DNA from: Octopus vulgaris | Taxonomy: Eukaryota | Length of the DNA: 64,000 nucleotides | Assembly (NCBI GenBank): GCA_951406725.2 | Contig: OX597843.1 | Location: 18,476,001-18,540,000 of the forward strand | Direction: 5' to 3' | Shown here: positions 422 to 30,400 of the stretch, piece by piece | Layout: each line of letters starts with the position of its first letter | Numbering within the stretch: the first letter of the stretch is position 1 | The notes under the pieces: model-generated | What the model was told of the DNA's origin: nothing | Databases searched by the model: none | The model's input: only the letters and a program-made list of their open reading frames with translations | Made by a program: the position numbers and the translations under genes

Positions 422-493
422 ATCTATTCATGTAAATAATATTCCGCATATAGAAAAAGGGATATTCCAAGATCTTCCGAGTTTAAAGGAATT
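422..493 (+). CDS. LRR exon 1 (class A) [24 protein letters not shown]
   Basis: 72 nt, tatag/ATCT...GAATT/gtaagt, phase 2-2. Confidence 0.9.
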
Positions 494-3400
494 GTAAGTC
501 AATTTACTTTTCTTAATACAACTTTATGAAAATAATATTGCTATAAATTCAATGTCATTTCGTTTCTGTTTCATGCCCTATTCTTTGGACTTTTACTCGT
601 TTTTTGTCCATATATTTGAGTAATATTGTTTTGATTGTGTATGAGGTAAAGTACAACTGGGATTTTACATGTTTGCATCAAAGCATATTAATAGAAATGT
701 TGTATATATATGTTAATATGTATAAATATGTATATATGTATATATATATATATATATATATATATATATATATATATATATATATATATATACATATACA
801 TACATATATATATATATATATATATATATTTATACATATACATACATATATATATATATATATATATATATATAAAACTGAGAATGTGTGTCTGTCTGTG
901 TCTGTCTGTGTGTTTCCCTAAAACTTGAGAACTACGCAACCAATTTCATTCAAATTTTACTCATGCCTTACTTAGGGTCCATGTAGTTTCGTGGGCAAAA
1001 AATGTTCAACTACTTGCCTAGAGCGAGCCCATAGCAATACCATATCTTCTCCACTATTTCAGTATTACGTGTTAAAAGTGAAACAAAAACATTTCTCTAT
1101 TTTATGTCAGATGCTTTCACTTTAACAATAAAAATAATAATAATTGAATTATATGTAGTAAGTAATAATTAAAATCAAACTAAAGTATAATATAATCGTA
1201 ACATAACAAAAGTTAAAATAGCAATTGGTATAAAATTGCATCAATGACTTGAACTTGAAAAAGTGGTTTCACATGAATGGGAATAAATTAAAAATAAAAT
1301 AAGCGTGCAGAAATGGAATAGTCCAGATGGATAATAATTAAATTAAAGAAAAGGCTATTGTCTATAAAGCATACAATGTAGAGAAAACAGAAGATTTGAA
1401 CACATGGAGGAAAGCACGATCGAAAAGTGTCTTGGTGCGACTATGAAAGATATCTAACCAGATGCAGTAATTTCGCCATAAATAAAAGCAACGTTCGAGT
1501 CAACAGAGCATGTAAGGGAGTACTCGACTCGAACTTGCAAAGTGGAAATGTTTTTTTACCCTTATATCTGGGACGTAGGACGTCCCGGATAAAAATTTTA
1601 AATGCCCCCATCAGCTGTAGAGGTAGGCTGGATTGTAGCCACACTTCTATACAAGAGGAAGGACAAAATACAATTGATCGAAATTGCAAGAGACGGGCTT
1701 ACAATTCCAGTTTGTTATATATTTTGTGCATTGTTATCACTAGCGATATCAAGATATGACTTTGTATTTTGTATTTTATGTGTAGATGTATATATATATA
1801 TATATATATATATAGATGTACATGTGATATGTACACATATATATACAGATATATACATGCACTAGCACTATGACCCGGCAACGACCGGTCATAATGCTAG
1901 TATATATATGTATATATATATATATATATATATATATATATATATATATATATATATATATATATATATTATAAAATATAATAAATATCAAGAAATCAAT
2001 ATCAGAAAATTCTTCAGAAAGATATATACGTGTGTAAAATAATTCGGTTTCTTATTAATCTTTTCCTTCATCTCAATTTTACTCTTCTTTTCATCTTCCC
2101 CTTTTTCTTGATTCGTCCTCTTCGTCCGCTTCTTCCTTTGCTTGGTATTCTTTGTGCCATTCTCCTTCGTCCTTTTCTTCACTTCTTTTACTTGGTCGTC
2201 TTTTTCTTCTTCATCTTCTTCGTGTTGTTCTTGTAGTTCTTTTTCTTCTATATCTTTTCTTTAATCCACTTTCCATTGTTTTTCTACTTCTTGTTCTTTT
2301 TCATCTACTTCTCTCGTTTTTCTTCTTTTAGATCATCCTTTTCTTTTTATTTTAGTTTTTCTTCATTTTCTTGACTTTCTTGTTGTGTCCCTCAATCTGC
2401 TTTTCGTTCTTGACTTTCATCACTTTCTTCTTTTCCTTCTTTTCTTGTTCCCTTTTTGCCTGCTTCATCATCGTCATGATTATCATTATCTTATTATTCT
2501 ACATCTTTTTCCTCTACCTCCGTCTTCATCTTCCACGTCTTCTTTTTTTTCTCCTTTTCGCTTTCTTTCCCTTCCATTTGGTTTTCTCCTGATTTTCCTT
2601 CGTTTTTTAAACATATTTTACTGCTTCTTTTTCTGGTTCTTTTCTCCTTCATATTCTTTCATCTACATTGTCTTTTCTTTTGTATTCTTGTTTATTTCGA
2701 CTTGTTAGACATTTCCTTCTTTTTTGTCTTCTTCTTCTTCTTCTCAATCTACATTTACTTTTTCTTTATTTGTTTCCTTCTATTTCTTCATCTTCTTCTT
2801 TACTTCCTCCTTGTTTTCTTCACCGACTCCTTTTCTCTTGTTCTTGTTATTGTTCTTCTTTCTCTCCTCCCTTTACTTCATGTTCTTATCTTCCTTCCTT
2901 TCCTACTTGTTTATCACAAACTATGCTGTCATCCTTTCCTATATTTCCATTCTTCATTGTTATCTCAAATATTTTCTATAATTTCTATCGTTGTTCTTTA
3001 CTTCTACAGATATCTTTACAGAAATAATATTTCGAGTATTGAAGAAGGAAGCTTTTACGGCCTTCCTAGACTAGAGAAATTGTAAGTTGGTCAATTTTGT
3101 TGGAAAATATTATTACTGTATACGAGTGAAATTTGACTGGTGGTCACCGCTGGTGTAATCTTGTGGTTGCATGTAGTATTAGAGGCAAAGTGCAGCAGTG
3201 TTTGCTAGGAAATAAAAGTGTGGCAGATATCTCCCTAAAGGGGAGAGAATGACTGTGATGGAGAATTTTTTTACATATTTTGTTATGCTCCGTATAATTC
3301 ATTCTCTTCTTATTTTCTTTTCGGAATTCATTTAATTTTGGGGTGGGGAATTATCAATGCACTGCAACGTGTAATAAAACCACATAGTTATTTAAAACAA

Positions 3401-27400: not shown

Positions 27401-30400
27401 TCCTTCTTCTTCTTCTTCTTCTTCTCCTCCTCCTCCTCCTCCTTCTACTACTACTACTACTACTACTACTACTACTACTACTACTACTACTACTACCTCT
27501 GCTTTCTTCCTCCTTCATATATTTACTCTTTCTTATTCTTGTCCTTTACTTCTACTTGTCCCTAAACTCATTACCTTCTCGTTTTTCTCTTTCGATAGCT
27601 TCCTCCGGTTATTTTTCCTGTTGCTCCTATTACATCTTCTCTTTTACCCTCGTCTTCTTCTTCTTCTTTTTTTCCTTTTTATTCTTGTTTGTCTTAAGCT
27701 GTCTTGTCATCGTTTGTCATCCTGTTTATTTATTGCTGCAGGTATTTAAATGGAAATAATATTTCGAGTATTGAACAAGGAAGCTTCCAAGGTCTTCCTC
27801 GATTACAGCAGCTGTAAGTTCGTTCACTTTTGTTAAGACTATATTATGAATAACAGAAATATTAAAATTACTAAGTCTCTCTAAAGGAGATTACAGCAGC
27901 GTTACTGGATATTAACAGTTATCGCCATACTAATATGGTAGTCTATAAATATAAGACTAAAGCTGCCGCTGATTAGCTCCGAGAGGCTATCGCCTCCAGC
28001 TAGCTATTTGACACACGAACCTGCGTCCATTACAAACCTTCGAACAGGGGAGGTCAGCCGCTTCACCCTGCTAGTCAGACATCTGCAGACATGTTTCAGG
28101 CTTGTTGCCCTTTATCAATGCAGCGTAGTCAGACCCGCAGCTGTCGCTACTGACCGTCTGTTCGAAGATTTTATTTACCTAGTTACAGTGGAATACATCC
28201 ACTTGTTTTCAATAATAGAAATATTAATATTACTAAGTCTCTCTAAAGGAGATTACGGCAGCGTTACTGGATATTAATATTCGAAGGTTTGTAATGAACG
28301 CAGGTTCGTGTGTCAAATAGCTAGCTAGAGGCGATGGCCTCTTGGAGCTAATCAGCGACAGCTTTAGTCTTATATTTATAGACTACCATATTAGTATGGC
28401 GATAACTATTAATATATTATGAATGTTTACATAACTTTACTGATGCCACGTTTCTCTTTCCCTCTCTCTTTTTATTACTCTAACTCATACTGTGTTCTCA
28501 TATTCGCCCAATATCTTTTTGATTTTATCTGAAGACGCGTACGACACGGATGTTATATATGTCTGCATCAAAACTTATTAACGGACATGTATACGTGTAT
28601 GTTCGTGTATATGTTAATGTCTGCATGTATAATGTGACTATGTGATTTGTATTAATATGCTTCATTTTCTCTTTCTTTTCTACCAGCTGTACTTTTTCCT
28701 CTTCTTTCGAAATTCTTCTATTCATCTCCGATCTCTTCATTCACTTTAGATTTCATATCTAATAAAGCAATCTGTAGATGGAGAACTATCAAATACAATA
28801 TACTCATATATTACGTTCTCGTTGTAAAAAGTACCAGCTTCCAGCACGTGATTTGCATCAATTTCCCAGACACTCATTCACTGATGATATATTTATAAAT
28901 ATTTGATGTGCTCTCCTGTCCTTCTTTTCTCGTCTTCTCCCATTTAAACTAATATTATAAACATTATATTTGCATGTGTGTTTGAATGTGTGAATGTGAC
29001 TTTAAATGTATTATACAGTATATTCTTCTTCTTCTTCTTCTTCTTCTTCTTCTTCTTCTTCTTCTTCTTCTTCTTCTTCTTCTTCTCCTTCTCCTTCTCC
29101 TTCTTCTTCTTCTTCTTCTACTTCCGCTTCTCCTTCTTCTTCCTCTTCTTCTTCTCCTCTTCTTCTTCTTCTTCTTCTTCTTCTTCTTCTTCTTCTTCTT
29201 CTTCGGGTGGTTTTAAGCTTTAAAAAATTGGTGACAATTGAGTGCAACTCGTTCGATAAGTTATCCCTATTTTTCATTTTCTTCTGAACTTTTAAAATTC
29301 TATAGTTAATTTATAGGTACCCAGTATGTACTTTATACTAAAAGTTAAAGGTGAACATTAATTCTTTTAGGTACTTCGAATTTGATTCTTCAAGTTGTGA
29401 ACTACTCTGAAGATAGTCAATATTCTTGTAATAATATCTTTTTGAAAGACATACACACACACACACACACACACACACACACACACACACACATATATAT
29501 ATATATATATATATATATATATATATATATATATATATGCGGCAGGATTCCACGCAGTTTCCAGTAGGAACTTCACTCCAGTAGAAAATTTACTAGGTTC
29601 ACTGAAAAAGGTGTTCGTTGCGTAGCAAGCTGGCTAGTTGGAAATCTGCCTAACTGGCTGGTAACTACAATAGAAGACCCAAGTCGACCCAAGGCTATCG
29701 TAGACGTTACATGTCCAAGGTGCCACGCAATGGGACTTAAAAAATCCCATGTATGTGAGAAGTAATCTTCTTGACACAGAACCATGCCTATATTGAAAAT
29801 GATATATCTATATTAAATGAGAATGTTATGTAATATCCATATCGTGCACTTAAAGTCTCGTTGATATTTTGTCCTTTATTATATTTTACCATCTTGCATC
29901 TGTTGTTTAGTTAACACCAGATTTTCTCTTAGAAAAACTAAATTGAATAGAAGTAACATATTCCTGTCAAAGCAACACTTCCATGAGAACTATTAAGAGA
30001 AATAAGTGTTTTGTAAGCATCAGCATTTATTCTGTCAGCGTTCGAATAAAGAACAATTTAAAGAGGATTGAACAGTAGAAAACTGATTGATTGAAGATTT
30101 TACTTATTATAACTTATGTAATATTTGTCTCTTTTTCAGATATTTGCAAAACAACTCAATACAAAAATATGAAGATGGCGCTTTCTTTTTCCTCCCCAGC
30201 ATAGCTGGCATGTAAGCATAACAAGTTCTTTTTGTTTATAGGAAAATGAAAATAATAAAATGAGGTCATCAAATTCTCAATTCCTCGTTAAATGTTGTTG
30301 GTAATAAACAACAATGAGTTGATTTAAATTTCAGTGCATCAACATGATTTCCGAGCATTGTGTTTTACTATCGTAAATTTTATGTCCAAATATCAAGGGT

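Follow-up and report, generated by a model that had tools for sequence, protein, structure and literature searches.

A higher-order repeat of leucine-rich repeat exons in an Octopus vulgaris adhesion GPCR gene and its probable origin by block duplication

The stretch of DNA analysed here, referred to below as the window, comprises 64,000 nucleotides of Octopus vulgaris (assembly GCA_951406725.2, contig OX597843.1, positions 18,476,001 to 18,540,000, forward strand), and all positions are counted from its first letter. It carries an array of leucine-rich repeat (LRR) exons which, as judged from the sequence, encodes the LRR head of an adhesion G protein-coupled receptor (GPCR) of Octopus with the domain order LRR-LRRCT-Cys-rich-SEA-like-HormR-GAIN-7TM, 7TM being the seven-transmembrane domain. 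A first-pass annotation had listed 14 LRR exons of five classes, A to E, in three successive blocks, and its starts and quoted motifs were all correct. On the plus strand, block 1 consists of A1 (422–493), B1 (3010–3081), C1 (4793–4864), D1 (8852–8923) and E1 (10603–10674), block 2 of A2 (11492–11563), B2 (13064–13135), C2 (13723–13794), D2 (18401–18472) and E2 (19393–19464), and block 3 of A3 (20802–20873), 'B3' (23631–23702), D3 (26700–26771) and E3 (27742–27813).

Each of these exons is 72 nt long, is flanked by AG and GT, has an open frame in phase 2/2 and encodes one 24-residue LRR. A fifteenth live LRR exon, F (30140–30211, plus strand), was absent from the earlier list; it is terminal, divergent and outside the periodic array, and its motif YLxNNxIxKYEDGAFxFLPSI is conserved across paralogues. 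When the 15 live exons are spliced in order they give 359 codons with 0 stops and Leu at 14/14 junctions. Owing to the uniform length (72 nt), the uniform phase (2/2) and the Leu codon that spans the junctions, gain, loss or skipping of an exon keeps the frame. An nhmmer profile of the 14 exons, run on both strands of the 64 kb, re-found all 14 at E≤3e-21 and one degenerate copy besides (around 15853–15951, E 1.8e-6). No further exon copy was seen on either strand under E 0.9, and no minus-strand LRR cassette under E 2.

The exons downstream, all on the plus strand, identify the gene. An LRR C-terminal cap exon with the motif CGCHL (37262–37419) matches the O. sinensis protein XP_036370807.1 at 51/53 residues, a match that was used to infer its 3′ end. 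It is followed by a Cys-rich domain (39512–41391; exons 39512–39603 and 41208–41391), a predicted ferredoxin-fold SEA-like domain (43177–49496; exons 43177–43259, 46807–46859 and 49339–49496), a hormone-receptor-like (HormR) region in two exons (52238–53912), GAIN and GPS (55252–61988; exons 55252–55483, 55780–55951, 57975–58133, 61313–61441 and 61839–61988) and the exon for the first transmembrane helix (62801–62916, 38/38 to XP_036370807.1), the remaining 7TM lying beyond the window. GPS (PF01825) was found on window exon 61839–61988 with E 8e-14. On XP_036370807.1 the secretin-type 7TM (PF00002) scored E 3e-37 and GAIN (PF16489) E 4e-4, the latter below the curated cut-off; the Pfam domains of this protein are 7tm_2, GPS and LRR_8. 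The Pfam scan gave no match to Ig, CUB or pentraxin domains.

XP_036370807.1 matches throughout, at about 91–100% per exon, and its model begins at D3; D3, E3 and F match it at 22–23/23 residues. The O. vulgaris model CAI9744521.1 has no LRR and begins at the SEA-like domain. Nine exons from 49339 onwards were compared with it; 7 match along their whole length, and the mismatches of the remaining two (43/52 and 37/38) are confined to model or exon edges. That the LRR array and the GAIN-7TM part may share one transcript is suggested by junctions from separate contigs, running from a B2-like exon through to E3 and F, and by XP_036370807.1, in which D3-E3-F are joined to the 7TM. When proteins of 78–2000 residues were searched with a profile of the 14 exons, 3/2,509 candidates were obtained, namely XP_036370807.1 and two fish Slits. 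An annotated protein with A1 to B3 was not found in that search, which is weak evidence.

The higher-order repeat is real. On average the exons are most alike at lag 5 (mean identity 0.758 vs 0.60–0.61 at lags 1–3), and permutation gives p 0.006 for nucleotides and p 0.016 for amino acids. As had been proposed, the exons cluster by class and not by block or position: the approximately unbiased (AU) test rejects trees in which the exons of block 1, or those of block 3, form a clade (p 0.0033 and 7.5e-6). The five classes fared unevenly in a tree of the exons with 200 bp of flank on each side. Classes A (99/98) and C (100/98) are firm, D (78/81) and E (78/80) are weak, and B is absent as a clade from the best tree yet not rejected (AU p 0.10). 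With C and D united at 100/100, the firm deep lineages are three only: A; B, E and the dead copy described below; and C/D. Class-specific flanks, also part of the annotation, were found for A (64–74% identity), C (76%) and D (69–84%), in part for E and not for B. The flanks of E1 and E2 are 67% identical, and that of E3 reaches only 52–54% because of an insertion. B flanks, at 53–54%, are no more alike than those of different lineages (mean 55%), the figure for unrelated acceptors being 46%.

The blocks are spaced at 11,070 and 9,310 nt from A to A, and this spacing, the class grouping and the collinear introns support duplication in tandem of a block of several exons, some 9–11 kb long. Comparison of the window with itself showed off-diagonal intron similarity that is collinear and in register between blocks, in the intron pairs A2–B2/A3–B3, psi–D2/B3–D3, C1–D1/psi–D2 and D2–E2/D3–E3, where psi denotes the dead copy. 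Identity between blocks is mostly 64–86% in introns and 52–66/72 in exons. One tract inside the psi–D2 intron, of about 800 nt (17393–18166, plus strand), is 95–97% identical to 25744–26485 in block 3, with 70–86% on either side; sliding identities are inflated by cheap gaps, and their shape alone was used. Of 13.5 synonymous sites, D2 and D3 have a difference at 1. The tract is likely to be the product of gene conversion between blocks 2 and 3.

The dead LRR exon psi (15871–15943, plus strand) occupies a slot between C2 and D2 that is designated B′. It is 73 nt long, one base having been gained, and it has lost both splice sites (acceptor AG to AC, donor GTAAGT to GCATGT) and has changed framework residues. 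The presence of a dead B-like copy in block 2 had been recognised earlier; as a local extra of that block it does not hold, since block 1 keeps the intron that belongs to the slot. This orphan intron element (7045–7505, plus strand) is of the type that follows B/E-lineage exons: the introns downstream of E1 and of E3 are 68–69% alike to it over 341–475 nt. The nhmmer profile found no exon ahead of it. The C1–D1 intron that contains it has four collinear matches with the psi–D2 intron. Block 1, therefore, likely once held an exon in the psi slot.

The surroundings of 'B3' point to the same slot. Its upstream flank is closest to that of psi (94/123, 76%), followed by B1 (74/114, 65%) and B2 (62/112, 55%). 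The B3–D3 intron is aligned with the psi–D2 intron over 1,051 nt and has no listed match to B1–C1 or B2–C2, and in the A3–B3 intron the first part aligns with A2–B2 and the last part with C2–psi. It is likely, on this intron evidence, that B3 is the living B′ and that block 3 is A-B′-D-E, without B and C together. The annotation had C alone lost from block 3; C is indeed missing, and the account was incomplete, since a B3 whose flank and intron match psi suggests that B is likely missing too. Remnants of A, B or C were sought in the E3–F and A3–B3 introns, and generic flank matches alone were found. The ancestral block was likely A-B-C-B′-D-E, that is, A, two pairs each of a B-lineage and a C/D-lineage exon, and E.

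Twenty-four sequencing runs were listed, and four RNA-like ones were aligned to 18300–19660 (D2–E2), giving 9 records; pieces of 8 were shown, one of them being an unrelated repeat. The RNA-like contigs cover exons only, E2 among them, and join D2 to E2 by a GT..AG joint (18472 to 19393). In two contigs from two studies (X12 record 3 and X17 record 8) exactly 72 nt lie between a B-type exon and D2, which leaves no room for psi. Another (X12 record 4) reads E2, 72 nt, B3, D3 and so crosses the block 2/3 junction, while loose contig ends give D3 to E3 and E3 to F. Expression takes in block 2 and what lies downstream of it, at the least, the RNA nature of the runs being a guess. A contig with another organism code (X13 record 7, one contig, depth 3.7) shows 0 differences from window E2 and D3 over 111 nt and has only 72 nt between them. 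B3 is alignable at the threshold used and A3 is not, so that B3 is probably the exon missing from this contig, by skip or haplotype. A contig reading E, 72 nt, B2-like exon and next exon (X10 record 2) is several letters off window E1 and B2, and was therefore not taken to establish that block 1 is spliced to block 2.

These observations are explained best, and with fair confidence, by tandem triplication of a six-exon A-B-C-B′-D-E block, followed by trimming and patchy gene conversion, as the route by which the LRR head was built. The pairs B-C and B′-D would be products of an older two-exon duplication, and unequal recombination in introns would have made the three 9–11 kb blocks. Slot B′ would then have been deleted in block 1, while in block 2 decay of its splice sites would have killed it; block 3 would have lost B and C together, and blocks 2 and 3 would later have exchanged about 0.8–1.1 kb around D. 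With 15 repeats or more, the resulting protein would form a solenoid that binds an extracellular protein ligand and signals through GAIN-7TM.

Several points weigh against this reading. The deleted exon of block 1 is deduced solely from its intron, the flanks of B1 and B2 share no more than background (53%), and the union of B3 with psi has tree support of only 71/75, with B1+B2+B3 not rejected (AU p 0.10–0.34). Block sisterhood varies by class: D and E favour 2+3, and D1+D2 is rejected (AU p 0.034), while the A exon with its flank favours 1+3 (A1+A3 supported 84/73). As the classes disagree on the sister blocks, the order of events, including loss versus gain of B-C, is tentative. The exons are short, with about 14 synonymous sites each, and flank-only trees were mostly unresolved. 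The signal peptide and N-cap are not within the 64-kb window, and with the 5′ end of the array outside it, 15 LRRs and three blocks are minimum counts. The runs are taken as RNA by guess, contig depth is 2–6, and contigs from the organism coded B are a few letters off the window.

The loss of B and C from block 3 could in principle be turned round. If the four-exon A-B′-D-E were ancestral, a two-exon duplication upstream would have added B-C, B′ would have died once, and the block would then have been copied into blocks 1 and 2. This possibility carries a minor share of the probability. It is in keeping with the single C/D lineage (100/100) and the single lineage of B, E and psi, it accounts for blocks 1 and 2 with a single B′ death, and the proportion of synonymous differences (pS) is low between B1 and B2 (0.25) and between C1 and C2 (0.29); the closeness of D2 and D3 can be put down to the conversion tract. 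However, it predicts roughly equal distances of the B3 flank, where 76% for psi, 65% for B1 and 55% for B2 are seen, and C–D exon identity (46–53/72) lies below that of D1 with D2 and D3 (56–57/72). The low synonymous distances are also shared by A2–A3 (pS 0.31) and E2–E3 (pS 0.27), and an O. bimaculoides paralogue holds separate C-like and D-like repeats, a weak point at 23 residues.

The history given in the first-pass annotation, in which ABCDE was copied three times, C alone was lost in block 3 and the dead B was a local extra, is improbable. B1, B2 and B3 do share YLYRN, and their grouping is not rejected in either test (AU p 0.10, 0.34); the collinearity of the orphan post-exon intron in C1–D1 with psi–D2 largely refutes it, and the 1,051-nt match of the B3–D3 intron to psi–D2 and the B3 upstream flank, nearest to psi, tell against it. 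Very improbable is an origin of the order in scattered cassettes whose single exons were shuffled or converted, the pattern of the ROCO genes of brown algae. It would suit the intronic dead cassette, the tract that looks converted and the disagreement of the classes over block relationships, and also the little fixed period in paralogues (of nine arrays tested only that of P0029 had a permutation p under 0.05, uncorrected). Against it stand in-register intron homology on the kilobase scale, spanning psi-D2-E2 vs B3-D3-E3, the lack of any minus-strand cassette and an order repeated three times (p 0.006). An assembly artefact of tandem-stacked haplotypes, to which the 95–97% tract between blocks 2 and 3 and the microsatellite-rich array might have pointed, has hardly any probability given intron identities mostly of 64–86%, exon identities of 52–66/72 and the presence of D2/D3 and E2/E3 as distinct copies in one RNA-like chain over the block 2/3 junction.

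The array is under purifying selection. Within classes dN/dS is 0.26 (95% interval 0.14–0.46, from 13 non-independent pairs with a codon-column bootstrap). Identity at exon positions 1, 3 and 4 is 1.00, 0.85 and 0.62 within classes and 0.27, 0.00 and 0.04 between them, a contrast that is partly circular as the classes had been named by the residues at these positions. These three are the variable strand positions of LxxLxLxxN, which are established as lining the concave face of LRR solenoids (see also PMC11378527). At these concave positions the proportion of nonsynonymous differences (pN) is below pS within classes (0.09 vs 0.39) and above it between classes (0.68 vs 0.37), the latter on three partly class-chosen columns near saturation. 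The super-repeat on the protein surface that had been proposed is seen at the level of sequence, as class-defining residues at strand positions; its register is 5-5-4 and not uniform. The predicted concave face would recur 5-5-4, and the periodicity likely reflects how the array arose and not selection for a ruler. The LRR array also carries 11 N-glycosylation sequons, at position 6 in B1, E1, E2, A3, B3 and E3, at positions 4 and 17 of both C repeats and at position 4 of F.

A bolder proposal is that octopus LRR adhesion GPCRs serve combinatorial recognition, with a ligand-binding face patterned by block duplication, regulated skipping of single exons that would give each gene many heads, and repeated removal of B′ by selection on register; this is unlikely. 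Slot B′ was likely deleted from block 1, as deduced above, is dead in block 2 and is probably missing from one block 3 contig. Two O. sinensis paralogue clusters, P0069 and P0023, have 13 and 6 annotated isoforms that differ by whole 24-residue repeats; together with the contig that is one exon short between E2 and D3 they give hints of combinatorial skipping. Splices between repeats can be inventions of the aligner (PMC10632439), and where exons are nearly identical, whole-repeat isoforms of this kind may arise from misalignment. If skipping is regulated, the family is a candidate for recognition diversity in arms, suckers and skin, the reported sites of group 3 expression. The P0069 and P0023 clusters, whose members are named 'slit-like' or 'chondroadherin-like', are truncated heads of the receptor's family.

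Ritschard et al. 2019 (PMC6408891) describe, as their group 3, an octopus-specific expansion of adhesion GPCRs with LRRs in 5/22 members. The gene studied here appears from its sequence to be related to that group: XP_036370807.1 is 49% identical over 961 residues to the group-3 member A0A0L8FLR8, with the same domain order, and two group-3 members were among the relatives of the ectodomain. GPS and the adhesion 7TM are common to both; the group 3 passages are silent on exon structure, on the number of repeats and on any higher-order arrangement, and the octopus gene carries 15 or more LRRs. When the cap-to-SEA region was used as query, 37 relatives were obtained; 10 were looked up, and 9 of them were named Octopus proteins. 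The 14 relatives examined have 3–16 LRR units. In a protein tree of 121 units, with 6/117 branches starred, the nearest neighbour of 14/14 units lies inside the gene. One O. bimaculoides paralogue, P0074 (XP_052821851.1), has 16 LRRs with a strand-residue pattern of its own of 3–4 units; its unit 5 is nearest C1 and its unit 14 nearest B3, which suggests that some classes may be older than the divergence of these two genes.

The mode of growth is a known one: multi-repeat duplication, LRR super-repeats and dead 72-nt exons all have precedents. The copying of several repeats in one event is described as the common mode of expansion by Bjorklund et al. 2006 (PMC1553488), who treat the seven-domain, four-exon super-repeat of nebulin. 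There an autocorrelation peak marks the unit and the exon pattern follows it, as happens in the octopus array at lag 5. Nebulin keeps its seven-unit length, whereas the octopus unit was not kept (live blocks of 5, 5 and 4, likely from 6) and its decay can be read in the introns. In the S/T super-repeats of small leucine-rich proteoglycans (PMC6293640), LRR classes recur in a super-motif within one extracellular solenoid, as in the octopus array; those unit types differ in kind, are old and are conserved in vertebrates, in contrast to octopus units that are all of 24 residues, gene-specific and so young that their introns can still be aligned.

The brown-algal ROCO genes have 72-nt phase-2 exons of one LRR, dead copies in introns and splice variants (PMC3341825, PMC11378527), as has the octopus array, the splice variants tentatively. 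They belong to a different protein family and differ in having opposite-strand cassettes and positively selected concave sites, whereas the octopus array has none on the minus strand and its concave sites are class-conserved. NLRP3 and Slit have frame-preserving LRR exons of one repeat, a precondition for splice variants, and the passages on them in PMC6642158 discuss no block structure. Somatic assembly from flanking cassettes, of the variable lymphocyte receptor type, was ruled out, the cassettes being ordinary spliced exons in one open frame.

No description of the exon layout of the octopus receptor family was found in the literature searched, in which subscription journals were mostly lacking. 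The array records with unusual clarity how the binding surface of a repeat protein is rebuilt: its introns show the traces of block duplication, of a slot that died or was deleted, of the loss of an exon pair and of conversion. The public models lack 12–15 of the LRR exons, that of O. sinensis starting at D3 and that of O. vulgaris at the SEA-like domain; the number of members of the octopus expansion credited with LRRs is therefore likely too low.

In place of the canonical cleavage site CxCxHL↓T the GPS reads CSCDYL↓TSF (61839–61988), with Tyr for His. Among the 24 GPS motifs listed, 18 have His one or two places before Leu and 3 have the Tyr variant; a Tyr-bearing GPS also occurs in O. sinensis P0001 (XP_036370807.1) and P0007. 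Judged by this motif, the receptor may be uncleaved. Not every adhesion GPCR undergoes cleavage (PMC13197933), and CSCDYLTSF thus leaves its membership of the class standing.

The Cys-rich domain has ten conserved Cys, ends in CC..N.CN and has no Pfam match; by its motif it resembles three-finger (Ly6/uPAR) domains, a likeness and not a confirmed fold. Vertebrate ADGRA receptors also combine an LRR head with HormR-GAIN-7TM. The SEA-like domain stands before HormR-GAIN, as in zebrafish Gpr126 (ADGRG6/GPR126), and its model resembles the zebrafish domain (Z 8.1, rmsd 2.7, 88 residues aligned) in a tie with many ferredoxin folds; the database name 'G6-like' is no evidence of orthology. The VIA-align rows covered only residues 147–242 of the cap/Cys-rich/SEA-like model. 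Foldseek gave nothing at E≤0.001 for this model, the ESM Atlas gave no usable match, and a full-length model was discarded at a pLDDT of 40.

The array is rich in microsatellites and holds other repeats. Four tandem 184-bp units (23750–24489, 97%), part of a common interspersed repeat, lie right after B3. Three tandem 138-bp units (8323–8741, 95%) lie upstream of D1, with a single related stretch before D2 and before D3. An insertion just after E3 (27849–28415) contains two repeats, one inverted (136 bp, 96%) and one direct (67 bp). Two similarities are due to interspersed repeats and not to block homology: an element like a short interspersed element (SINE) at 11908–12248 and 19757–20081 (84%), in non-equivalent places, and an inverted match of 14289–14672 to 24844–25226 (92–94%). 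In the intron between F and the cap exon, two overlapping long frames occupy 33383–35540 on the minus strand; from their motifs they are taken to be a fragment of a LINE-type (long interspersed element) reverse transcriptase.

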